From Candidatus Levyibacteriota bacterium (GTDB taxonomy: Bacteria; Patescibacteriota; Microgenomatia; Levybacterales; UBA12049), in assembly GCA_963716145.1 (NCBI GenBank), contig OY970292.1, positions 405,171 to 469,170 on the forward strand: a stretch of 64,000 nt of DNA. Direction: 5' to 3'. Both the position numbers and the translations under genes were made by a program. Positions within the stretch are counted from its first letter, which is position 1. Every line of letters starts with the position of its first letter. This document shows, one piece after another, positions 3,165 to 60,569 of this stretch. Below the pieces are notes generated by a model. It worked only from the letters and a program-made list of their open reading frames with translations. It made no database searches and was not told the DNA's origin.

Positions 3165-3256
3165 GAAAATTTCAAATAAGTACCAATTTCAAATATCCAA
3201 TTTCCAAAACCTTAATTTAACATTTGAAATTTGATATTAGAAATTTGAAATTAAAC
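3165..3256 (-). repeat. R1-family AT-rich dyad-symmetric element, copy a. It is a 5' leader/promoter-type repeat.
   Basis: Near-identical to 3500-3591, 4171-4247 and 58881-58966. Shared core: AATTTCAAATAAATACCAATTTCAAATATCCAATTTCTAATC ... GTAATTTGATATTAGAAATTTGAAATT. It ends at the start codon of the downstream minus-strand gene. Confidence 0.8.
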
Positions 3257-3499: not shown

Positions 3500-3591
3500 A
3501 TTTTATTAATTTCAAATAAATACCAATTTCAAATATCCAATTTCTAATCATTTTTGTAATTTGATATTAGAAATTTGAAATTTGATATTCC
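3500..3591 (-). repeat. R1-family element, copy b (upstream of rpsR).
   Basis: Sequence identity with the other R1 copies. Inverted repeat AATTTCTAAT / ATTAGAAATT. Confidence 0.8.
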
Positions 3592-4170: not shown

Positions 4171-4247
4171 TAATTTCAAATAAATACCAATTTCAAATAT
4201 CCAATTTCTAATCGCATTTGTAATTTGATATTAGAAATTTGAAATTT
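4171..4247 (-). repeat. R1-family element, copy c (upstream of ssb).
   Basis: Sequence identity with the other R1 copies. Confidence 0.8.
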
Positions 4248-4271
4248 CTTTTACTTCGTACGAAGTAAAAG
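4248..4271. repeat. Perfect 24-bp palindrome CTTTTACTTCGTACGAAGTAAAAG spanning the rpsF stop codon.
   Basis: All 12 base pairs are self-complementary. It lies at the rpsF/ssb junction and may be an intercistronic hairpin or processing site. Confidence 0.6.
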
Positions 4272-5250: not shown

Positions 5251-6390
5251 TTAGCTTCCAATTTTGAATTCCACGACATCTCCATCTTTGACTATATATT
5301 CTTTTCCCTCAAGCCTTGCTTTTCCTTTTTCCCGAGCACCCTTCCACCCGCCTCGACTCGCCCCGGAGTCGGGCGAGGCGGGCCCATTATTCGCAACAAA
5401 GTCTTCAAAACCCACAACTTCTGCTTTTATGAATTTTTTTGTAAAGTCGGTGTGGATTTCCCCGGCTGCCTCCGGCGCGCTTGAACCATTTCTGATAGTC
5501 CATGCCCGCACTTCCTTCTCCCCTGCTGTGAGGAAGGAAATTAAGCCGAGAGTTTGATATGCTTTTTGTATTAATCTTTCTAATCCTGATTGGTCTAAAC
5601 CTAAATCTTTTAAATACTCCTTTTGCTCACCGCTTGATAACTCTGAAAGCTCTGACTCTATCTTGGCGCAAATAACTACCAACTTCTGACAACTAACTCC
5701 TAACGACTCACTAAACTTTTTTGTTACGTTTTCTATCTCAGACGGATTGTATTGATCTTCAGAAACATTGAGTACGACTATTTCAGGTTTAGCAGAAAGC
5801 AAAAAAAGCTCCCGGGACATTTCTCTCTCTTCATCGGTTAAAACAATATCCCTCGCTGGTGTTCCCTGCTCCAAACCAATCCTTAACTTTGCAAGCATTT
5901 CTTTTTTTAGAGGACTTTCTTGCTTCTTACTTCTTGATTCTTGATTCTGAACCGTTGCTAGGTCGGCCAAAATTAGCTCGGCATTAATCACTTCATAGTC
6001 AGATTTCGGATCAACTGCTCCTTCTTTGATGACATCAGCGTCTTCAAACGCGCGGACAACATGGGAAATTATTTTTGTTTCGCGGATGTGGGACAAGAAC
6101 TTGTTTCCAAGCCCTTCTCCCTCGCTCGCGCCTTTTACAAGGCCGGCAATGTCGTAAAACTCTACAGTCGCTGGTTTAATTGGCGGTAAACCAGACATTT
6201 TTTCCTCGTCCTTCGTAATTGCGGCGAGCGTAGCGAGCCGATTGTCAGGTACTGCTACAATCCCAACATTTGGCTCAATGGTCGCAAAAGGATAATTGGC
6301 AGCCAAAGCCTGCTGCTTCTTCAAAAGCGCATTAAACAACGTACTCTTGCCGACATTAGGGAGCCCTACTATACTGATGCTTAGGTTCAT
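5251..6390 (-). CDS. ychF: Ribosome-binding ATPase YchF (Obg-family GTPase with a TGS domain).
   Basis: G1 motif GLPNVGKSTLFNAL and a C-terminal TGS region ...LEGKEYIVKDGDVVEFK. It carries an in-frame 36-nt GC-rich palindromic insertion (PASPDSGASRGG). Confidence 0.9.
   Translation of the reverse strand: MNLSISIVGLPNVGKSTLFNALLKKQQALAANYPFATIEPNVGIVAVPDNRLATLAAITKDEEKMSGLPPIKPATVEFYDIAGLVKGASEGEGLGNKFLSHIRETKIISHVVRAFEDADVIKEGAVDPKSDYEVINAELILADLATVQNQESRSKKQESPLKKEMLAKLRIGLEQGTPARDIVLTDEEREMSRELFLLSAKPEIVVLNVSEDQYNPSEIENVTKKFSESLGVSCQKLVVICAKIESELSELSSGEQKEYLKDLGLDQSGLERLIQKAYQTLGLISFLTAGEKEVRAWTIRNGSSAPEAAGEIHTDFTKKFIKAEVVGFEDFVANNGPASPDSGASRGGWKGAREKGKARLEGKEYIVKDGDVVEFKIGS
5348..5383. 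repeat. 36-nt GC-rich imperfect palindrome inside the ychF coding sequence.
   Basis: CCCGCCTCGACTCGCCCCGGAGTCGGGCGAGGCGGG. It encodes about 12 extra residues relative to YchF homologs and keeps the frame. Confidence 0.7.
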
Positions 6391-21584: not shown

Positions 21585-21662
21585 ACCTCAATTATAGCAG
21601 AATGCCCACCCTAAAACTTTGTATTTAGTTTTTACGGTGGGCAATGCTCGTCCAACTTACAG

Positions 21663-24606: not shown

Positions 24607-24641
24607 TTACTGGATAATATAGCATATTTAAAAAGAAGTTT

Positions 24642-26113: not shown

Positions 26114-27275
26114 ATGAAATCATTTAAACTTCAACGGGGGCAGGTTTTGAAAAACAAAAAAACAATTTTCCATAAAATTTTAGATCACATTTTGGCGGTT
26201 CTTTTTTCTCTAATTGGAATATTGATAGTTACTTTAGCTGGTTCTCCACTGAATACTGTACCTTTATTAATTTTTATTCCTCTTATTGTTATTAGTGCAT
26301 GGAACGGAGGATTATCTGCAGGCATATTAACCACTGTAACTTCAGCACTACTTATTGTTTTATATCCTTTTCAATCAAGCAGCATATATGATTATATTGA
26401 TATTGCACATGTCTTCGTGTTTGTTTTATTTGTAATCGAAGGTACTTTTTTCAGTTTTATAATTAATTTGTTGCAGCAGCGGGCCCAGGATCGGAGAGTA
26501 CAAAAAACGCGAGAGGGAGTTAAATAAAAGGATTTTTGAGCTTGAAGAACAAAATAAGAAAAATGAAAAAGAGATAAGGTCCCGTGACGAATTCCTATCA
26601 ATTGCCTCACACGAGCTGAAAACCCCTCTTACGTCGATGCTTCTTCAAACCCAAACAGCACTTCACAATATAAGAAATGTTTCTGTTGCGCATTTTTCTT
26701 TTGAAAATCTTTTGAAGATGCTGGAGAGCGTTGAAAATCAAACAAAAAGACTGTCCAAGATGATAAATGACCTTTTGGCTGTTTCAGTAATTACAATCGG
26801 AAACTTAAATCTCGAATACGAAGAAATTGATCTGGGCAAATTGGTAAAAGGAGTTTTAACTGATTTTCAGGCTAGGATAAATAAAGAAAAGATCGAGGTA
26901 ATATTTAATTCCGAAGAAAAAGTCATTGGCAAGTGGGACAAAATTAGAATTGAGCAGGCTATTTCAAATTTTGTCTCCAACGCAATTAAATACGGCGCAA
27001 ACAAGCCTGTTGAAATTGCTGTCAGGAAAAATAACCGCTATGCGGAATTTGTCATAAAAGACAATGGAATCGGGATTTCCAAATCAAAGCAAAAACTGAT
27101 TTTTGAACTTTTCCAAAGAGCTGTTTCAACTGAAGAATATAAGGGACTTGGTGTCGGACTCTATATAACTCAAAAAATAATTATTGCCCATGGTGGGATA
27201 GTAGAAGTTTCAAGCAGCCCCAACAGAGGCTCAAAATTCACAATGAAGCTCCCCTTCAAAAGACCCCAGAAATAG
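26114..27275 (+). CDS. DUF4118-domain sensor histidine kinase with a probable frameshift in the A6 run at 26503-26508.
   Basis: Track ORF 26114..26527 is a DUF4118-like membrane domain. ORF 26637..27275 is HisKA/HATPase_c. The H-box FLSIASHELKTPLTSM lies between them in the +1 frame. One fewer A rejoins the frames. Confidence 0.75.
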
Positions 27276-28715
27276 TCATACGCTGGGTAAATTTTCTACC
27301 GAGGTTTTCAGTTTATATTGCCAGTTGCGATCCCCCACTTCTTTTTCGGTTCCGGGGATATTTATTCGATCAGTAGTCAAAAGCCAATCCTGAATTGAAA
27401 TAATTACGGTTTCTGCTGGCGAGTCGATTATTCCATCGCGAAGATTTTTCGCGAATACTTTCTCAACCGAATTGTACTTCACACCGCATGCACGAGCAAG
27501 TGATTTTCTTTGCTTTGGTGATAAGTTCCGCAGATACACAAGTAGTGTCTCCGTATCATGTGTTGTCGTGTACGCAACGGTCAAGGCAGGATAGTTGCTG
27601 ATCTTTGCGTATTCTTTATTTATCTTTTCCTTTTTTTCATTCAGAGCAAATCGAAGAATTTTAATTCCCGGAGTTTTGAGCTTATTAAGAGAATTCCTCA
27701 GCTCGCTGAGATGCTCCCCGCTATCTTCGGCAAATATTGAGAGTCCCGCTCTCTTTCCATAAAGCATCAACTCCTCAAATACAACATGCCCCGGACCTTT
27801 TATGTACTTATCGTTATTTTCATTTGTTAAATCTATCTCTCCGTAATCAAACAGTCCTTTCGCGTGATCAAAACGAATTGAATCAAAAAGAAGCGACAAA
27901 TAATGCAATCTGCATTTCCAAAAATCAACAACTCTTTTGCTTTGAGTCTTATCCCCCCATTTATAAAGCGGATGTCCCCAAACTTGTCTTCCAAAATGAG
28001 CGGACGGACTATCCGGAATTCCTGAGACATAACGTGTCCTGCCGTCTTTCTCAAACTGAAAAACGCCTTGATTAGCCCAAACAAGCGGGCTCTGCATAGA
28101 GACATAAAACGGTAAATCGCCTATCAGTTTGATTTTTAGTTTTTTCGCTTTGTTTTTTAATTCCTTGTACTCTTTATGCAGATGGTACTGAACTAAGATA
28201 TGTTGGTCAATTTCCTTTTTTAATAAGTTGGAATAACTATCTATTGCGATTTTTTTTCTTTTTCTTAAATCAGGAATCCATTCTCTCCAATCATCAGTTC
28301 CCAAGTGATCGCGAAGCGCGCAAAAAAGCGCGTAATCTCCTATCCACTCCTTGTTTTCATTGACAAACACTTCAATCTCTTTTTTGCTCTTGCGCTCTTG
28401 CGCTCTTGCGCCCACTGATAAATACCTTGGGTCCAGTCCAATTCCATATCCTTTATACGGAGATGGAACATGCCGAGTTGCTGAGCCTTTTTCGAGTTGA
28501 GTCTGATGGAGTGGAAGTAATTGCCAGGCCGATTGATTAGTTTTATGCAGCCAGTCGAGGAAATATAAGCCTGTTTCAAAAATTCCCTGATCTTCTTTCT
28601 TGGATTTTAAACTTGAAAGCGCGGAAACCGGCACAAGCGTACCAATAATTTTCTTTTTTTGAGTCACATAGATAATTATATCATCTATGCAATTAGCGAC
28701 TTTGGGGAGGAACAA
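27276..28715 (-). CDS. malQ: 4-alpha-glucanotransferase (amylomaltase, GH77).
   Basis: WQLLPL, LIGDLPFYVS and RIDHAKGLF motifs. It contains the 26-nt (GCTCTTGC)x3 tract at 28389-28414. Confidence 0.8.
   Translation of the reverse strand: MFLPKVANCIDDIIIYVTQKKKIIGTLVPVSALSSLKSKKEDQGIFETGLYFLDWLHKTNQSAWQLLPLHQTQLEKGSATRHVPSPYKGYGIGLDPRYLSVGARAQERKSKKEIEVFVNENKEWIGDYALFCALRDHLGTDDWREWIPDLRKRKKIAIDSYSNLLKKEIDQHILVQYHLHKEYKELKNKAKKLKIKLIGDLPFYVSMQSPLVWANQGVFQFEKDGRTRYVSGIPDSPSAHFGRQVWGHPLYKWGDKTQSKRVVDFWKCRLHYLSLLFDSIRFDHAKGLFDYGEIDLTNENNDKYIKGPGHVVFEELMLYGKRAGLSIFAEDSGEHLSELRNSLNKLKTPGIKILRFALNEKKEKINKEYAKISNYPALTVAYTTTHDTETLLVYLRNLSPKQRKSLARACGVKYNSVEKVFAKNLRDGIIDSPAETVIISIQDWLLTTDRINIPGTEKEVGDRNWQYKLKTSVENLPSV
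28389..28414. repeat. 26-nt tandem micro-repeat GCTCTTGCGCTCTTGCGCTCTTGCGC inside malQ.
   Basis: Identical to 56899-56924 inside dnaX. Both encode ARAQERKS in the same frame. Confidence 0.75.
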
Positions 28716-33414: not shown

Positions 33415-34406
33415 ATGCTTAATCCAAATTTGAAACTAAATCCGAAAATATTTGATGAGGATGTTGAGAAAGATGCTACACGCATTGGATACGGCAAAGG
33501 ACTTCTCAAACTGGGTCAGGAAAACCCAAATGTTGTCGCGCTTTGCGCTGATTTAACAGAATCAACAAATGCACATCTTTTTGCCAAAGAATTTCCTGAT
33601 AGATTTTTTGAGATGGGAGTTGCGGAGCAAAATATGGCAGCAGTTGCCGCAGGACTTGGCGTCACTGGCAAAGTCGCATTCATCTCCTCATACGCCACCT
33701 TCTCCCCCGGTAAAAATTGGGAAACAATCAGAACAACTATTGTCTATAACCAATCAAATGTTAAAATCGCGGGGCACCACGCCGGAATCATGACAGGACC
33801 GGACGGTGCAACGCATCAAGCAACTGAGGATATCGCGATAACCCGCTGCTGGCCTGATATTGAGATTTTTGTTCCATGTGACGCGATTGAAGCTGAAAAA
33901 GCAACGATTGCGGCAGGCCGCACCACAATGCCTGCGTATCTACGCTTCTCAAGAGACAAAACTCCCTTCATGACGACTGCCCAAACACCCTTCGTCCCCG
34001 GCAAGATGCAGAATTTTTGGGTGAGTGAAAATCCGCAAGCTACAATTTTTGCAATGGGCTATATGGTTCACTATGCACTGGTTGCGGCCCGGGAACTGGA
34101 AGAAGAAGGAACCAAGTAACAGTTGTAAATGTTTCAACAATAAAACCACTCGACGTTGAAGGAATTCTAAATTTTACCAACCAAACAGGTGCGGTTGTTA
34201 CGGTTGAGGATCACCAGGTAATGGGCGGCATGGGCTCAGCGATTGCTGAAGCACTAGCGAAAACAAATCCCCTGCCCATGGAGTTTATCGGTCTTCAGGA
34301 CAGATTTGGTGAAACAGGAAATCCAAAAGATTTAGTTGAAAAGTTGGGAATGGGAACAAAGGACATAAAAGCTGCTGTAAAACGTGTAATTGGTAGAAAG
34401 AAATAG
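33415..34406 (+). CDS. Transketolase, C-terminal subunit, with a probable frameshift near 34116.
   Basis: Track ORF 33415..34119 ends ...ELEEEGTK*. The +2 frame continues VTVVNVSTIKPLDVEG...HQVMGGMGSAIAE (ORF 34221..34406). Changing AAGTAA to AAGGTAA restores EEGTKVTVVN. Confidence 0.8.
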
Positions 34407-34509
34407 TTCCAGAACACTCGGAAAACTCCGATTATCAGTAATTTCAGGCCGTCTGAAAACCTGAAAGTCAGAATATCTGGATTCCTGAGTATTCTGAGTA
34501 TTCTGAGAT
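34407..34509. repeat. R3-family MITE-like element, copy a, with terminal inverted repeats TCAGAACACTC / GAGTATTCTGA.
   Basis: It shares the 20-mer CAGAACACTCGGAAAACTC and the inverted 3' end with 58067-58180. It ends 2 nt before the ATG of the FAD oxidase gene. Confidence 0.7.
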
Positions 34510-36162
34510 ATGAATGAACAATTATTAGACGAACTAAAACAAATAATCACCGGTGATGTTGCGATTGACGATGAAACGCTCAATAAATACTCCCATGACG
34601 CGAGTATTTTTGAGATTAAACCTCAAGTAGTTGTATTCCCTAAAGACGATGAGGATGTACAAAATCTGGTAAAGTTTGTAATAAGGCACAAGCTCCACAA
34701 TCCGGAACTAAATCTTACTGCCCGAGCCGCAAGCACCTGTATGTCGGGAGGAGGACTAAATACTTCAATAGTTGTCGCTTTTCAGAAGTACTTTAATCAC
34801 AAACCAAAAGTTTCAGGACGCAGCGCAACAACTCAACCCGGAGTTTTTTATCGCGACTTTGAAAAAGAGACACTGAAACACGGACTTCTTTTCCCCTCCT
34901 ACCCATCTTCGCGTGAAATATGCGCGATGGGAGGAATTGTAAACAATAATTCTGGCGGTGAAAAATCGCTTGAATATGGAAAAACTGAGGATTATGTAAC
35001 AGAGCTCAAGATGGTTCTGGCTGATGGAAATGAGTATATTATCAGCTCCCTGACTGAGAAAGCGCTGCATGCAAAGATGGCGCAGAATGATTTTGAAGGC
35101 GAAATGTACAAAAAAATATATAAATTAATTACCGATAACTATGAATTAATCATGAGCGCCAAACCGGATGTCTCCAAGAATTCCGCAGGATATTATCTAT
35201 GGAACGTTTATGACAAAGACAAAAAAACATTTGATCTCTGCAAATTATTTGTCGGGGCTCAAGGGACGCTTGGGCTTATGACACAAGCAAAAATAAAATT
35301 AGTCCCGACAAAAAAACACACCGAGATGATGATAATTAATATGCATGATTTTAATCACCTTGCTGAATTGGTAAATATTATTCTGCCCCTCAAGCCCGAA
35401 AGCATTGAAGCATATGATGACAAGACTCTCAAGCTAGCGCTCAAATTTTTTCCTGAATTTTCCAAAAAACTTGGCACCAGGAGCGTTTTGACAACAGCTC
35501 TTAAATTTTTGCCTGAGTTGATTCTTTATAAAGAACACAAATTGCCAAAGCTTGTCATGCAGATAGAATTTGCCGATAATCATCTGAGCAACCTTAAAAA
35601 AAGAATTGAAGAGCTGACCCAAAAACTACAAAATCTTCATCCTGAGACAAAAATTGCGATTGATGCGGAAGAGAAAAAATATTGGGAGATAAGAAGGGAC
35701 AGTTTTGGACTTTTACGGGGCCATGTAAAAGACATGTATTCCTCCCCTTTTATTGATGACATTGTTGTAAAACCTGAATATTTACCCGAATTTCTGCCCC
35801 AATTTAATGCAATTCTTGATAAATACCCTTCAGTAATTGGAACTTTTGCGGGGCATGTTGGGAACGGAAATTTCCACTTTATTCCTCTTGTCAGATTGAC
35901 TGATCCCAAAGAGCAGCATCTTATTCCCAAAATTTGTCAGGAAGTATTTACACTCGTGACAAAATACAAAGGATCAACCAGCGGCGAACACAATGACGGT
36001 TGGATCAGGACTCCCTATCTTCATCTACAATATAGCAAAGAGGTCTTAAAACTTTTTGAGGAGACCAAAAAAATCTTCGACCCACATGGGATTTTCAATC
36101 CTCACAAAAAAGTAGATGGAGATTTGGAATTTGCAATGAAGCACGTGAGAATGAGTTGGTAA
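34510..36162 (+). CDS. FAD-linked oxidase (GlcD / D-lactate dehydrogenase-like).
   Basis: FAD_binding_4 N-terminal region and an FAD-oxidase C-terminal domain, 550 aa. Confidence 0.75.
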   Translation: MNEQLLDELKQIITGDVAIDDETLNKYSHDASIFEIKPQVVVFPKDDEDVQNLVKFVIRHKLHNPELNLTARAASTCMSGGGLNTSIVVAFQKYFNHKPKVSGRSATTQPGVFYRDFEKETLKHGLLFPSYPSSREICAMGGIVNNNSGGEKSLEYGKTEDYVTELKMVLADGNEYIISSLTEKALHAKMAQNDFEGEMYKKIYKLITDNYELIMSAKPDVSKNSAGYYLWNVYDKDKKTFDLCKLFVGAQGTLGLMTQAKIKLVPTKKHTEMMIINMHDFNHLAELVNIILPLKPESIEAYDDKTLKLALKFFPEFSKKLGTRSVLTTALKFLPELILYKEHKLPKLVMQIEFADNHLSNLKKRIEELTQKLQNLHPETKIAIDAEEKKYWEIRRDSFGLLRGHVKDMYSSPFIDDIVVKPEYLPEFLPQFNAILDKYPSVIGTFAGHVGNGNFHFIPLVRLTDPKEQHLIPKICQEVFTLVTKYKGSTSGEHNDGWIRTPYLHLQYSKEVLKLFEETKKIFDPHGIFNPHKKVDGDLEFAMKHVRMSW

Positions 36163-36578: not shown

Positions 36579-36623
36579 TGCTGTATTATAGGACTAATAT
36601 TAGCAAAAGTCAAATCTGGGTAG

Positions 36624-37088: not shown

Positions 37089-37150
37089 ACAGCCATTATA
37101 CTAAATTTTGTATTGCTTTTTATTTCTAAAATGAGTAATATTAAATAGAT

Positions 37151-46802: not shown

Positions 46803-46903
46803 AAATCAATTGTAGCAGGAAAACTAGAATTATGAATTAAGAGGTGCGAATTAAGATTTGGCTTAAAATAAATATAATACCCTTAATTCTTAACTCTTGC
46901 TTC

Positions 46904-47311
46904 TTACTTCTTTTCGAAATTCAGAGCGCAGGAGTTGATGCAGTAATGCTGATTTGTTGGAGAAGATGAATCATCAAATACATGACCCAGATGTCCTCCA
47001 CATGTCTTGCAGATGACTTCGGTGCGTTGCATACCAAGATCATTGTCTGGTCTTAGCTCAACAGCGTCACTATTGGCAACATCGGCAAAACTTGGCCAGC
47101 CCGAAAGACCCGGCTGGTCTGATTCATATTTGGACTCACTTTTGAAAAGAACCGTTCCGCATGCTGCGCATGTATAATCTCCCGTGTCATTATTGTGGAG
47201 CAATTTACCACTTCCCGGATACTCTGTCCCTTTCTCGCGAAGAACTTTATACTGCTCAGGGCTCAATTTCTTTTTCCAATATTCCTCAGGCTTGTCCTTC
47301 ATACCGCTCAT
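46904..47311 (-). CDS. msrB: Peptide-methionine (R)-S-oxide reductase MsrB.
   Basis: CAACGTVLF ... GWPSF ... RTEVICKTCGGHLGHVF ... YCINS. Confidence 0.9.
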   Translation of the reverse strand: MSGMKDKPEEYWKKKLSPEQYKVLREKGTEYPGSGKLLHNNDTGDYTCAACGTVLFKSESKYESDQPGLSGWPSFADVANSDAVELRPDNDLGMQRTEVICKTCGGHLGHVFDDSSSPTNQHYCINSCALNFEKK

Positions 47312-47356
47312 TGTAGATAATTTTAGCATATTTTGTGCTAGAATATAAAGACTTTT

Positions 47357-53356: not shown

Positions 53357-53965
53357 CTAATACTCACTTCTCCCCACCATGGCTTGGTCTAAGGTGGTTG
53401 AATCAGCATATTCAATATCCGCTCCTGTCGGTAAGCCCCTGCCTATCCTTGTGATTCTCAGTTCTGAGTTCAAAGTTTTAAGTTGTTTCGCAAGAAACAT
53501 AGCTGTCGCTTCTCCCTCCATAGTGGGATTGGTTGCCAATATAACTTCCGTAATTCTTGGTTCTAAATTCTTGATTCTTTGTACGAGTTCGCTTATGCGA
53601 ATCTCGTCCGGCCCGATATTATTTAACGGATCTATTTTCCCATGCAAAACATGATAAACTCCCTGGTACTTTCCGCTCTTTTCAAATGCCAGAATATCAA
53701 GTGGCTGCTCCACGACACAAATTATTTGCTGATTCCGCTTATTATCCGAACAAATACTGCATGGATCTATCTCATCAACTGAAAAACAAATTGAGCAAAT
53801 AATAGTATCTTTTTTTAGATTCTGAACTGACAAAGCAAACCTATCAAGTTCACCTTGCGGAACATGCAGAAGATAAAAAGCGAGGCGTTGAGCAGTCTTG
53901 GGACCCACCCCCGGCAAACGCTCAAAACCCTCAACTAAATTGGTAATTGCTTTTGGAATACGCAT
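53357..53965 (-). CDS. recR: Recombination protein RecR.
   Basis: HhH N-terminus, C4 zinc finger (CSICFSVDEIDPCSIC) and a Toprim domain. Confidence 0.9.
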   Translation of the reverse strand: MRIPKAITNLVEGFERLPGVGPKTAQRLAFYLLHVPQGELDRFALSVQNLKKDTIICSICFSVDEIDPCSICSDNKRNQQIICVVEQPLDILAFEKSGKYQGVYHVLHGKIDPLNNIGPDEIRISELVQRIKNLEPRITEVILATNPTMEGEATAMFLAKQLKTLNSELRITRIGRGLPTGADIEYADSTTLDQAMVGRSEY

Positions 53966-53967
53966 AA

Positions 53968-54083
53968 TCTAATTTTCAGTTTTTAATTTAAAATTTGAAA
54001 TGAATATTTAATGTTTTAAATTTAAATTTTTAAACATTTTATACTTCAATGAAAATTGAAAATTTCAAATTGAAAATTGTTCT
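53968..54083 (-). repeat. R2-family AT-rich element, copy a (upstream of recR).
   Basis: The 51-nt block 53985-54035 is identical to 59358-59408. The tail TTCAATGAAAATTGAAAATTTCAAATTGAAAATT is conserved. Confidence 0.8.
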
Positions 54084-54086
54084 ATC

Positions 54087-56030: not shown

Positions 56031-56145
56031 TAACCCAATATGTAAATACTACCAATCAATTCCCAATGCAAAATAAACAAATAATTCTGCATTAAACCAT
56101 TTTTATTGATTTGTTTATTGGCTTATTTGTTTATTGGTAGTATTT
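56031..56145 (-). repeat. AT-rich dyad element upstream of prs copy 2. A 14-bp inverted repeat AATACTACCAATAA / TTATTGGTAGTATT plus direct repeats.
   Basis: Seen directly. It shares the ATTGGTA motif near the start codon with the R1 elements. Confidence 0.6.
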
Positions 56146-56476: not shown

Positions 56477-58066
56477 TTATTTACCTTTCAATTGTACCTC
56501 AACTGCCACATCTTTTCCAGTAAGCATTTTAGCTATTCTGGAAATCTCATTTAGTGTTTTAACATCACTAAGCCGTTCTTTGTGAAATTTAAATTCTGTC
56601 TCTATAATAAGAGTTTTTTTATCAAAACTGCTAAGGCGTGCTCCCCTCAGAACTCCGGCAATTGTGTGATTATAATTTTTCATTTCAGAAATTATGCTTC
56701 TCCAGAATGTCTCAAGCCATTCTTTGGAGAGAGCGCCTGTTGCTGAAGTATGCAAAAGATTGCCACTCTTATTGACTGGCAAAGCCTCTTTCGCCGCTGA
56801 ATCCTCCTTTGGAGGACCATACATTGCTTTGATTTTTTTCATATTTCCATCCTGTTTTCTAAGCGTTGAAACAGAAACTCCGGATTCTTCTTCATTATTT
56901 TCGCTCTTGCGCTCTTGCGCTCTTGCGCTTAACTGACCAATCTCTATGATCGCCAATTCAAGCGGCAGCTGCGGAAGAACTGAGTATTTGGTATCCTGGT
57001 AAACCTGATTAAAAATCTTGGCTAGAGTTTTTAATTCGTTGACATCAAATTCTACATTCAAAGATCGTTCATTTTCTGATTTTTTCTCTACCCCAACTTC
57101 TTCCAACAATCTTTTATTTAGCTCCATTAAAATTTGTACAATAAAAAATTTAATATCAATTCCTTGTGAAATTAATGTTTCAATTATCCTAAGCCCATAT
57201 TTTACGCCCTCGTTTTTATCGCCATTCTTAAGTGAAGCAAATAAGTTTGCGATGTGCAGAGGAATGCTTGTTGTCTTGTATGACTTTTCAAGAAGTGCAT
57301 GTGTAATTTTAGTGGTATTATTTAGTGATATTTCCTCCAAAATCTTTGCGGCGTCCCGAAAGCCACCATCTGCCATTTTCGCGATTGAATAAAGAGAATC
57401 GTCATCTATTTTGATCTTCTCCGCATCAACTATGCGTTTGAGTGAATGCACAATCTCCTCCTCGGTTGCCAGATTAAAATTGATATGAAAGCATCTTGAT
57501 ACAATTGTGTCAGGAACTTTTTGCGGTTCAGTGGTACAAAGAATGAACATCGCATGCTCCGGAGGCTCCTCAAGAGTCTTGAGAAGAGCATTAAACGCTT
57601 CAGTTGTGAGCATATGCACCTCGTCAATTATGTAAACCTTTTTACTTGAGCTCATAGGCGCAAGTCTGATTTTTTCTTTTAGATCCCTAATCTCATCAAT
57701 CCCCCTGTTGCTAGCAGCATCAATTTCCAGAATATCCATGTTGGAACCATTAGTTATCGAGATGCACTGTTCACATTTGTTGCAAGGCTCTATGCTTCGC
57801 AAACTTTGAACTGAGGACTCAGAACTAAGAACATTTCCTTTGAGTTCTTTGTTCTTTGTTCTTTGTTCTTTGTTAACTGTACGGCCAGTACAGTTAACGA
57901 CTTTTGCGATTATTCTGGCGGCTGAAGTTTTACCAAGTCCTTTTGGGCCTGTAAAAAGAAAAGCGTGGGCCGGTTCTTTGACCAATAGAGAAGTTAAAGT
58001 CTCACGCACTGACTTACTGTCAAGATCGTCAATTTTTTGCGGGCGATATTTACGATAATATACCAT
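56477..58066 (-). CDS. dnaX: DNA polymerase III subunit gamma/tau.
   Basis: AAA+ motifs GPKGLGKTS and DEVHML, plus a zinc module (CNKCEQC). It contains the (GCTCTTGC)x3 tract at 56899-56924. Confidence 0.9.
   Translation of the reverse strand: MVYYRKYRPQKIDDLDSKSVRETLTSLLVKEPAHAFLFTGPKGLGKTSAARIIAKVVNCTGRTVNKEQRTKNKELKGNVLSSESSVQSLRSIEPCNKCEQCISITNGSNMDILEIDAASNRGIDEIRDLKEKIRLAPMSSSKKVYIIDEVHMLTTEAFNALLKTLEEPPEHAMFILCTTEPQKVPDTIVSRCFHINFNLATEEEIVHSLKRIVDAEKIKIDDDSLYSIAKMADGGFRDAAKILEEISLNNTTKITHALLEKSYKTTSIPLHIANLFASLKNGDKNEGVKYGLRIIETLISQGIDIKFFIVQILMELNKRLLEEVGVEKKSENERSLNVEFDVNELKTLAKIFNQVYQDTKYSVLPQLPLELAIIEIGQLSARAQERKSENNEEESGVSVSTLRKQDGNMKKIKAMYGPPKEDSAAKEALPVNKSGNLLHTSATGALSKEWLETFWRSIISEMKNYNHTIAGVLRGARLSSFDKKTLIIETEFKFHKERLSDVKTLNEISRIAKMLTGKDVAVEVQLKGK
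56899..56924. repeat. 26-nt tandem micro-repeat GCTCTTGCGCTCTTGCGCTCTTGCGC inside dnaX.
   Basis: Identical to the malQ copy. It encodes ARAQERKS in a non-conserved linker. Confidence 0.75.
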
Positions 58067-58180
58067 ATTTCAGAACACTCGGAAAACTCGGTGAATCAGC
58101 GCTTCGGACAATCTGATATTCAGACACATCAAACTCTCTGACCTTCTGAGTGTTCTGAGTTTTCTGAATAAAACTCATTT
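58067..58180. repeat. R3-family MITE-like element, copy b. It lies between the dnaX start and the ybeY stop.
   Basis: 5' TTCAGAACACTCGGAAAACTC ... 3' CTGAGTGTTCTGAGTTTTCTGAA. The terminal inverted repeats and the 20-mer are shared with 34407-34509. Confidence 0.7.
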
Positions 58181-58567
58181 TTACTCATGATGAAGACCAA
58201 GCAAATGAAGCATTCCGTGCCTTACAAGCTCCTCAACTCTCTCGTCAACCAACAGTTCGTCGCGTGCTGCTTCTTTTATTACCTCAGGATAAGAAATAAC
58301 TATGTCTCCAAGCCGCGTTATGCCTGATGGCAATTTTGATGATTCGCCTTCAGCAAGTGGAAAAGAAAGAACATTGGTCGTCGTATCCTTATCGCGGTAC
58401 TGCTTATTGAGCTTCTTCATCTTGCGGTCTCCAACTATCGCGACAGAAACTTCAATCGGGCTTTTGAGCTCATTTTCTTCGCAAACACTGTATATAGCAG
58501 ATTTTATCTTCTTACGAGCAACTTTATATCTGCTTTCAACATAGATGAGAACATTAATATTATCCAT
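58181..58567 (-). CDS. ybeY: rRNA maturation endoribonuclease YbeY.
   Basis: HGMLHLLGLHHE (H..H.....H). Confidence 0.85.
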   Translation of the reverse strand: MDNINVLIYVESRYKVARKKIKSAIYSVCEENELKSPIEVSVAIVGDRKMKKLNKQYRDKDTTTNVLSFPLAEGESSKLPSGITRLGDIVISYPEVIKEAARDELLVDERVEELVRHGMLHLLGLHHE

Positions 58568-58669
58568 ATGCTATCTTCCATTTTCCAGGTTCCTTCTGCC
58601 ATTAATTGTCCATTTTAAAATTATCAAATCGAAAATAAATGGAAAATGGTAAATGGACAGTGGAAAATC

Positions 58670-58880: not shown

Positions 58881-58966
58881 AATTTCAAATAAATACCAAT
58901 TTCAAATTACAAATGCTAAATTAATTATTGGGAATTGGATATTTGAAATTAGAAATTTGTAATTCC
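58881..58966 (-). repeat. R1-family element, copy d (upstream of rpsU).
   Basis: AATTTCAAATAAATACCAATTTCAAAT ... ATTTGAAATTAGAAATTTG. Confidence 0.75.
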
Positions 58967-59338: not shown

Positions 59339-59340
59339 AC

Positions 59341-59448
59341 ATTAATTTTTAATTCTCAATTTAAAATTTGAAATGAATATTTAATGTTTTAAATTTAAAT
59401 TTTTAAACCTTTGGATTTCAATAAAAATTGAAAATTACAAATTGAAAA
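59341..59448 (-). repeat. R2-family element, copy b (upstream of the HIT gene).
   Basis: 51-nt identity with copy a, plus the conserved tail. Confidence 0.8.
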
Positions 59449-60354
59449 TTAAATTCTCTCTAGCACTCTAATTATATCAGCTAGGGATAATTTTGTCGGG
59501 CGCATTTTGGGATTTTTGGGAGTACCATTGAGAAGCATTTTTTTGGAGATGTGCAGAAACCAAGTGGCATCTGGATCAATTTTCCTCAATTGCTCATAAG
59601 CCAGAGTCAGGTCTATGCCTTTGTCTTTTACTGTCGCCGGTAATGTCTTGATCCTGACATATCCCTTTCTCGGATCTTTACGGACTACAAGAACATAGCC
59701 TTGTTTTTGTGCCAGTTTCAAAACCGTGTCATTCAGAGTCTCAAACCCCATCGCTTTTCCGTATTTTGTCTTAAATTCAATCCCCTTCTCCTTAATCTCC
59801 TTCTCAGCCCAAATACGGTTCTCAAAAGTGTGAACCAGACCCTCCAGACAATCAATTCCAAATTTCACGTATTCACTATCTTGTCCTGGTTTTTGTAACT
59901 TTACCCCCTCCAAAAGACCAAGTAAAGAAAATTCGTGATAGTCAGCTGAGGCGTCTTTCCAATAAACCTCTTTAAAATGATCAGTATCGACAATTATCTT
60001 GACAATTCTGGATACTGCTTCGATATGCTCAGGAGTCAACGTGTCTCCAGCCTTTTTAATCTGCTTTTGCACATAATCCCAGCTGAGCGATGCTCCGCAA
60101 ACAGTTGTATCTTGAGTTTGGTGATGATCAAGCGGCCCAAGCCCCGTGTCAACATGTATGATTTCCTCCTCGCCAATAAGTTCTATCGGGTCTTTTCCTT
60201 GATTCTTAATTCTTAATTCTTGCTTCCCCAATCTTTGCCCCGCAGGGACAAACTTGACTTCAGCTTTCTCCCATCCGGGTAAAAACCTTTTTATAATCCA
60301 GACAGAACCTATCGCATCCCAGTCTGGGGACATGTGGGTAACAATGATTTTCAT
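59449..60354 (-). CDS. DHH-family phosphoesterase (NrnA-like).
   Basis: HMSPDWDAIGS ... HVDTG ... LDHHQ. Confidence 0.7.
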   Translation of the reverse strand: MKIIVTHMSPDWDAIGSVWIIKRFLPGWEKAEVKFVPAGQRLGKQELRIKNQGKDPIELIGEEEIIHVDTGLGPLDHHQTQDTTVCGASLSWDYVQKQIKKAGDTLTPEHIEAVSRIVKIIVDTDHFKEVYWKDASADYHEFSLLGLLEGVKLQKPGQDSEYVKFGIDCLEGLVHTFENRIWAEKEIKEKGIEFKTKYGKAMGFETLNDTVLKLAQKQGYVLVVRKDPRKGYVRIKTLPATVKDKGIDLTLAYEQLRKIDPDATWFLHISKKMLLNGTPKNPKMRPTKLSLADIIRVLERI

Positions 60355-60540
60355 TAGGGTAAGTATACGCTAACAATTTTTAATTTTCAATTTTTAACTT
60401 GAAATGAAAGCTAAATGTTTTAAAATTTAATTTTGAACCTTGCCTGCCGGCAGGCAGGAATTCATTGAAAATTGTAAATTTTAAATTGAAAATTTTGAGT
60501 TGAACTATAGATTGACATGAACCCTTGACAAACATCCGTA
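60355..60540 (-). repeat. R2-family element, copy c (diverged). It carries an embedded GC palindrome GCCTGCCGGCAGGC at 60442-60455.
   Basis: Similar AT-rich blocks (TTGAAATGAAAGCTAAATGTTTTAAAATTTAATTTTGAAC; TTCATTGAAAATTGTAAATTTTAAATTGAAAATT). Confidence 0.6.
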
Positions 60541-60569
60541 AATGTCTGAAGATATAAATATAGACTATT

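Follow-up and report, generated by a model that had tools for sequence, protein, structure and literature searches.

What is a palindrome of about a hundred nucleotides doing between two genes, when it begins at the stop codon of the first and ends at the start codon of the second? The window that we analysed, a 64-kb stretch of DNA, contains two such palindromes, called R3, which an earlier note on the same DNA had taken for copies of a MITE-like or REP-like element. The genomes of CPR bacteria are tiny and densely packed, and little mobile DNA is usually expected in them. We favour the reading that R3 is a non-coding palindromic repeat family of CPR/Patescibacteria, similar in kind to the Rickettsia palindromic elements (RPEs), that has been gained over evolutionary time and kept where gene expression survives, with the hairpins of the window bridging stop and start codons. 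We put the probability of this reading at roughly 60%.

The window has a G+C content of 39% and a gene content typical of a CPR bacterium, its closest named relatives being Levyibacteriota/Levybacteria, and it contains no rRNA, tRNA or tmRNA genes. Most of its genes lack a Shine-Dalgarno (SD) motif; of 69 starts, about 8 have a motif that resembles one. Many first genes carry a -10-like box at a distance of 6-10 nt from the ATG. The combination suggests widespread leaderless-type initiation in this genome. Boxes resembling TGnTAnAAT precede start codons at, for example, 36579-36600, 37089-37110, 46803-46825, 47335-47356, 21585-21600 and 24607-24625. The two genes downstream of R3 (Table 1) are both without an SD motif. 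The ATG of the FAD-binding oxidase lies 1-4 nt past the hairpin foot and that of dnaX 2-4 nt past it, with 4 nt between arm and ATG. Upstream of copy 1, tktC has a 1-nt frameshift near 34108-34118 relative to intact orthologues of 330 amino acids, and a histidine kinase gene (26485-26527) has a 1-nt frameshift of the same kind relative to intact orthologues in relatives; these are either long-read assembly errors or pseudogenes. An S41 peptidase gene at 1831-2405 is possibly broken.

Table 1. Features at and around the two R3 copies of the window.
Feature	Position	Strand	Remarks
Transketolase C-terminal subunit (tktC)	33415..34406	+	upstream of copy 1; stop 34404-34406
R3 copy 1	34407..34509	+	fills entirely the 103-nt spacer from tktC stop to FAD-oxidase ATG; palindrome 34410-34505
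Copy 1 left arm, CAGAACACTCGGAAAACTC	34410..34428	+	exact 19-nt match
Copy 1 right arm, GAGTATTCTGAGTATTCTG	34487..34505	+	inverted partner of the left arm; 9-nt units
FAD-binding oxidase (PF01565, PF02913)	34510..36162	+	downstream of copy 1; ATG 34510
Sibling hairpin, AAATACTACCAAT units	56031..56145	-	ybaB-prs spacer
dnaX	56477..58066	-	downstream of copy 2; ATG 58066-58064
R3 copy 2	58067..58180	-	fills entirely the 114-nt spacer from ybeY stop to dnaX ATG; palindrome 58071-58166
Copy 2 arm, CAGAACACTCGGAAAACTC	58071..58089	+	same sequence as copy 1 left arm
Copy 2 inverted arm, GAGTGTTCTGAGTTTTCTG	58148..58166	+	
ybeY	58181..58567	-	upstream of copy 2; stop 58181-58183
Sibling hairpin, TTTTCCA/TGGAAAA units	58568..58669	-	fills rpsU-ybeY junction

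Both copies sit where the earlier note had placed them, directly ahead of the start codons of the FAD oxidase and dnaX. Each contains an imperfect palindrome of exactly 96 nt from arm end to arm end. The 5' 20-mer that the copies had been said to share is an exact shared arm at both sites, 19 nt long rather than 20, and its inverted partner at the opposite end of each palindrome has 3 mismatches. In the window, CAGAACACTCGGAAAACTC has 4 matches with up to 3 mismatches (0.02 expected), a number that none of 100 shuffles reached; a search with a degenerate form of the pattern also supports the repeat. The arm consists of two and a half 9-nt units (ACTCNGAAN), and the hairpin is laid out in blocks of 3-4 bp separated by single variable, often mismatched, positions. 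Overall, copies 1 and 2 are 67% identical, with near-identical arms and interiors that have diverged yet can be aligned. The predicted hairpins of both copies have free energies of -32 to -35 kcal/mol, and z-scores against dinucleotide shuffles range from -3.8 to -5.4 on either strand. Given these matches beyond chance and folds better than shuffled sequence, the pair of repeats with inverted ends is real. A covariance model finds only these two copies in the 64 kb. Copy 2 has its best score on the + strand, with 107.9 bits as against 68.5 on the other, and copy 1 on the - strand, with 97 bits as against 74; the sense of transcription is + at copy 1 and - at copy 2. Thus, the copies are inverted in absolute terms, as had been proposed, and share the same orientation relative to transcription.

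The history of the two sites can be read from related genomes. At the tktC|FAD junction we compared eight related contigs, whose FAD oxidases are 79-82% identical to that of the window. Four of them have almost no spacer: taa-AAAT-atg in L150 and L151, taa-AATT-atg in L147 and taa-AT-atg in L157. The others have a 15-nt spacer (L149), a 45-nt hairpin unrelated to R3 (L158), a 143-nt hairpin of another family (L148) and a GIY-YIG gene cassette (L156). R3 is present at this junction in the window only. The junctions of 2-4 nt in four of the eight contigs indicate that copy 1 was gained by insertion, and its restriction to the window makes a single gain the simplest reading. The 15-nt spacer of L149 (TAGTTATTTCTAAAT, L149:9986-10000) resembles the left flank plus the right end of copy 1, and may be the deletion footprint of an earlier R3 copy. 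The cassette in L156 (440-840) consists of a 94-aa GIY-YIG nuclease gene between two short hairpins whose stems, ATTCTGG/CCAGAAT, recall the R3 terminus TTCTGG/CCAGAA; no second copy of this gene was found among the collected loci.

The ybeY|dnaX junction gives a different picture. Metagenome contigs yielded DnaX relatives of at most 54% identity, and closer ones were obtained by protein search and contig look-ups. An orthologous R3 is present in L152, whose DnaX is 79% identical to that of the window, and in L005; hairpins of other families occupy the junction in L153, L154, L155 and L119-L121. One gene further upstream, the rpsU|ybeY junction has a 102-nt hairpin in the window and no spacer at all (taa|atg) in L152-L154. 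The comparison of insertion sites that the earlier note had called for therefore separates the two copies: copy 1 marks a polymorphic site and an insertion, and copy 2 is orthologous in L152 and L005. The note had also named ancient regulatory hairpins as the alternative to a mobile element, and this scenario is half borne out by copy 2, which is orthologous and conserved far above synonymous sites (see below). The syntenic block of L152 also contains two genes that are absent from the window, an integrase-like gene with rve_3/HTH_32 domains (L152:14732-15841) and a 23S_rRNA_IVP four-helix-bundle gene (L152:7862-8224).

Between the window and L152, the spacer that contains copy 2 is 89% identical and the element itself 85%. 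For comparison, identity in ybeY and dnaX is 58-60% at third codon positions and 87-95% at first and second positions. Copy 2 is thus constrained relative to third codon positions. R3 copies that lie inside open reading frames (ORFs; see below) and are shared between genomes are 66-84% identical, as against 55-66% for the flanking coding DNA. RNAalifold predicts a long stem, almost all of whose pairs are invariant; with so little variation at paired positions, covariation is uninformative, and selection on pairing cannot be separated from selection on sequence. By these comparisons R3 is not evolving neutrally, with sequence, pairing or homogenisation between copies as candidate causes. Judged by its conservation, copy 2 behaves like a constrained hairpin and not only like selfish DNA, and its conservation, taken with that of the arms, suits a functional element no less than a selfish one.

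R3 is not confined to this lineage. A DNA pattern scan with CAGAAYACTCRGAAWACTC, using one genome per species, returned more than 117 loci, and at least 12 genomes carry R3 copies that are homologous over their full length. The host labels among the matches listed are Levyibacteriota, Collierbacteria, Woesebacteria, Curtissbacteria, Microgenomates, Paceibacterota and Patescibacteria, plus a few metagenome-assembled genomes (MAGs) labelled otherwise. Copies in CPR genomes are 81-130 nt long, with predicted free energies of -22 to -66 kcal/mol. The arm consensus tTTCAGAA-N-ACTC-N-GAA-W-ACTC, with a terminus of 21 nt, is near-invariant over 42 arms, an invariance that is inflated since arm similarity was required for an element to be selected. 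About half of the characterised copies are intergenic and about half are read through in frame inside genes, and both orientations relative to transcription occur across the family. Intergenic copies elsewhere are found at FtsW|MurG, at Ppa|GyrA, upstream of InfB, upstream of CysS and between an S1-domain protein and RadA, with each foot a few nucleotides from a stop or start codon. One Collierbacteria contig has four copies within 16 kb. In the lineage of the window the copy number is low, with two in 64 kb of the window, one in 21.6 kb of L152 and none in about 130 kb of six other relatives, which counts against a mobile reading. In the literature that we searched, we found no description of palindromic elements of this type in CPR bacteria.

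Matches in Prevotellaceae and other Bacteroidales (L016:390, L052:3832, L023:6520, L101:5455, L100:977 and many more) were set aside as R3 candidates, as they are tandem 9-mer arrays without a hairpin. These head-to-tail arrays of TCNGAWTAC share their unit with the R3 arm, use all four bases at N and are not palindromic. Read in one frame, they give Ser-Glu/Asp-Tyr repeats. Several of them either close with ...TTATGA, which overlaps the next ATG, or are followed 20-40 nt further on by a lipoprotein-like start.

Twelve R3 copies are stop-free and in frame within long ORFs, with conserved sequence on either side. Two are located in one class II ribonucleotide reductase (RNR) and two more in neighbouring paralogues; others are found in MurD (two genomes), in an O-antigen-ligase-like membrane protein (two genomes), and in an ATP-dependent DNA ligase, DprA, YchF and one further ORF. 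These inserts have no counterpart in known homologues, namely Thermotoga maritima NrdJ (1xjk) for the RNR, a solved MurD structure (3lk7) for MurD, and the window's own YchF for YchF. At the same MurD position in two genomes, the R3 inserts are read in different frames, so the conserved entity is the DNA and not a peptide. Of the six possible frames, in-ORF copies have 1.8 open on average, compared with 0.7 in shuffled sequence. Searching 5.8 billion proteins with a profile built from three peptides that the element encodes yielded no candidates, a null result that is probably due to the low-complexity words in these peptides, and phmmer with a 33-aa peptide encoded in the window returned only unrelated repeat proteins from 1.84 billion representatives. 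The window also contains short periodic repeats with one arm only inside ORFs, at 5914-5948, 53544-53578, 60193-60227, 28373-28419 and 56890-56936. Their hosts are YchF, RecR, a DHH-like protein, a GH77 glucanotransferase and the dnaX linker. In translation they give stretches of low complexity, for instance from GAATCAAGAA units or from GCTCTTGC repeated three times. These may be remnants of palindromic elements or independent products of slippage.

Within the window, R3 is one of several families of the same design. Many spacers between co-directional genes are hairpins of 70-140 nt with family-specific arm units of 8-10 nt, and in most of these spacers the hairpin foot lies 0-5 nt from the ATG. 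One family can turn up at several sites across genomes: the AAATACTACCAAT family, found here in the ybaB-prs spacer, occupies tktC|FAD in L148 and ybeY|dnaX in L155. At least four or five other families, each with its own unit, fill stop/start spacers, the sites being 3165-3256, 3500-3591, 4180-4250, 46826-46911, 53966-54086, 58889-58960, 59339-59448 and 60355-60569 in addition to the two in Table 1. As with R3, these families show presence and absence, and turnover of one family for another, between relatives.

How far does R3 qualify as a mobile element? It is non-coding and, at 81-130 nt with inverted arms of 19-21 nt, well below the size of about 300 bp up to which a MITE is expected, and it is multi-copy with presence/absence polymorphism (two copies in the window, four in the 16 kb of Collierbacteria, an empty tktC|FAD site in four relatives). 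The target-site duplications and cognate transposase that the earlier note had proposed to look for were not found. Across 21 copies, no direct repeat of 2-9 nt exceeded the permutation expectation at boundary offsets of 0-5 nt, and the comparison of filled with empty sites reveals no duplication either. A Pfam scan of 50 window ORFs detected no transposase, no RAYT (Y1) and no IS200/IS605 protein; the window genes beyond these 50 were judged from synteny with annotated relatives. Among the collected loci there is no longer parent element with R3 ends and no pair of arms flanking a gene. Given that there is no target-site duplication, no transposase in the 50 ORFs and no autonomous parent, transposition as such is at most a candidate mechanism, and gains of R3 could instead have come about by recombination or gene conversion with other copies. 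The label MITE-like thus survives in part: R3 is small and multi-copy, has terminal inverted repeats and was inserted in at least one of its window positions, but it is not supported as a canonical MITE, as no target-site duplication was found. Nor is the label REP-like supported, since REPs are strictly extragenic and about half of the characterised R3 copies are inside ORFs.

The closest parallel among known systems is provided by the RPEs of Ogata et al., which are summarised in PMC10969869. Like R3, RPEs are palindromic repeats, about 100-150 nt long, of which several families occur in one reduced genome. Roughly half of their copies interrupt unrelated housekeeping genes in frame, the others being intergenic, and for RPEs as for R3 no mobilising enzyme is known. 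The R3 family shows the same in-frame insertion in its 12 read-through copies, although both window copies are intergenic. The two are unrelated in sequence, and the host of R3 is a CPR bacterium and not an alphaproteobacterium, so that R3 is at most an analogous kind of element and not a member of the RPEs. There are further differences. RPEs are described as coding for a conserved peptide; at one MurD site, by contrast, R3 is read in different frames. Unlike those of RPEs, the arms of R3 consist of 8-9-nt units with TCNGA cores that are near-invariant across several CPR classes, and the intergenic copies of R3 fill stop/start junctions exactly.

Correia elements (CREE) of Neisseria and ERIC sequences of enterobacteria are likewise small, have terminal inverted repeats, are co-transcribed with flanking genes, can form long RNA hairpins and show insertion-site polymorphism between relatives. 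Correia elements duplicate a TA target and carry promoter elements, neither of which was found for R3, and R3, unlike these mRNA-acting bacterial MITEs, has no known IS whose ends match. REPs and REPINs share with R3 the inverted pairs of a short conserved sequence that form a hairpin, the lack of a target-site duplication, and vertical inheritance over long periods with the sequence conserved. They differ in being extragenic throughout and linked to a single-copy RAYT (Y1 transposase) gene that is itself flanked by REPs; R3 also occurs inside ORFs, and the scan of window ORFs detected no Y1 gene. A functional analogy is offered by ribosome shunting at the CaMV 35S leader and by translational coupling through RNA structure, as in the RNA phage MS2. 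As at the R3 junctions, one ORF terminates where a long stable hairpin begins, and the following start codon is located at the 3' foot, without an SD motif. This likeness is purely anatomical.

If our preferred reading is correct, new R3 copies would arise at new sites over evolutionary time and would survive in one of two ways: in frame and stop-free inside genes, where they would be translated as hydrophilic loops, or in operons, by filling precisely the gap from one stop codon to the following start codon, as both window copies would have done. The two types of position that we find are those where an insertion would not abolish expression. The transcript at each window copy is predicted to fold into an imperfect hairpin of roughly 45 bp, with its 5' foot touching the upstream stop and its 3' foot the downstream ATG. 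From the empty junctions of 0-4 nt in relatives and the lack of SD motifs, that is, from anatomy, we infer that the downstream genes are probably expressed by coupling of termination and reinitiation. A hairpin folding back on itself would keep stop and start adjacent, and a ribosome on the stop codon would melt the outer base pairs and free the ATG region. Adjacency and melting together would allow coupling to survive the insertion, which would place the palindrome under purifying selection. It is again from the anatomy of the junctions that we infer a dependence of coupling on the hairpin, and a role in processing or stability is the main rival to this part of the reading.

Such a role would make R3 primarily a cis-acting RNA hairpin, a site of processing by RNase III or another enzyme or an mRNA-stability element, whose spread is secondary; it would separate cistrons or provide short-leader mRNAs in a largely SD-less organism with leaderless-type starts. 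The conservation of copy 2 well above synonymous sites, the presence of some hairpin at ybeY|dnaX in every genome examined, the position of the foot 0-5 nt from the ATG, and the frequent -10-like boxes 6-10 nt before the ATG of first genes in a genome mostly without SD motifs all agree with this explanation, and Correia elements are substrates of RNase III (PMC10969869). We nevertheless consider it unlikely. No hairpin is present at tktC|FAD in four relatives or at rpsU|ybeY in three, about half of the family is located inside ORFs, where cleavage of the mRNA would be harmful, both orientations relative to transcription occur, and no Rfam family matches. Selection could also act on the DNA, with R3 serving as a binding array for a conserved DNA-binding protein, whether a recombinase, a nucleoid protein or a factor related to methylation or restriction; the TCNGA cores, themselves palindromic, are spaced every 8-9 bp with overall dyad symmetry, and the potential to form a hairpin would then be a by-product. 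The arm sequence itself is near-invariant, its variable positions are exactly the N of each unit, and the constraint is independent of reading frame and orientation. But no candidate protein was identified, and sibling families in the same genome have wholly different units yet the same architecture and positions, which points to a structural rather than sequence-specific constraint on where they sit. An array of this kind seems improbable to us.

Two further explanations deserve hardly any weight. A guide-RNA-type array, either TIGR stem-loop or CRISPR-like, was considered because R3 contains CUGA (box D-like) motifs, because palindromic stem-loop arrays can form part of the TIGR-Tas systems found in CPR (PMC12045711), and because there are weak sub-threshold matches to C/D snoRNA models. 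Searching Rfam 15, we obtained no match at gathering score in the window, and nothing credible at E<=1 over both copies; the sub-threshold hits were to miRNA-precursor and C/D snoRNA models at 17-23 bits, which is chance level, and the 17 bits compare with gathering thresholds of 40-52 bits. R3 copies are single hairpins scattered between and inside housekeeping genes, and do not form tandem arrays beside a gene with a Tas or Nop domain. Their units are 8-9 nt long, with no box C and no spacers of 8-12 nt, and no Nop- or Tas-like protein was found among the 50 window ORFs scanned. We regard this identity as very improbable. The same judgement applies to a similarity that is due to chance or low complexity, and to R3 as an ordinary pair of intrinsic terminators or promoters. 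The arms do consist of short tandem units in a genome rich in AT-rich periodic spacers, but the failure of all 100 shuffles to reach the observed matches and the full-length homology across many genomes are not expected from chance. As to terminators and promoters, neither copy has a terminator-like site (0 found) or a T-tract, and neither has a promoter-like site in sense orientation. We also found no match of R3 to phage, plasmid or viral sequence.

A broader version of our preferred reading can be put forward only tentatively, and we think it rather doubtful as a whole. In CPR bacteria (Microgenomatia and relatives) there may be a whole class of unit-specific palindromic elements that act as hairpin bridges, or 'shunts', for reinitiation, with R3 as the most widely conserved member and its arm implying a CPR-wide, sequence-specific factor by which it is copied or bound. 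Elements of this class, each family with its own unit of 8-10 nt, would colonise the stop/start junctions of SD-less operons and in-frame positions of essential genes, and would come under purifying selection once they served as bridges.

R3 is a repeat family common to several CPR classes, found between and inside core genes such as dnaX, RNR, MurD, YchF and DNA ligase, and its nucleotides are better conserved than the surrounding synonymous sites and even than the surrounding coding DNA. Hairpins of this type inflate the 'intergenic' space of CPR MAGs and add odd low-complexity inserts to their protein predictions, and they can be used as lineage markers. If R3 is translated, it would be a source of loop insertions in essential enzymes, as has been proposed for Rickettsia. 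If the intergenic copies do bridge stop and start codons, they would provide a handle on the translation of operons in organisms that largely lack SD motifs.
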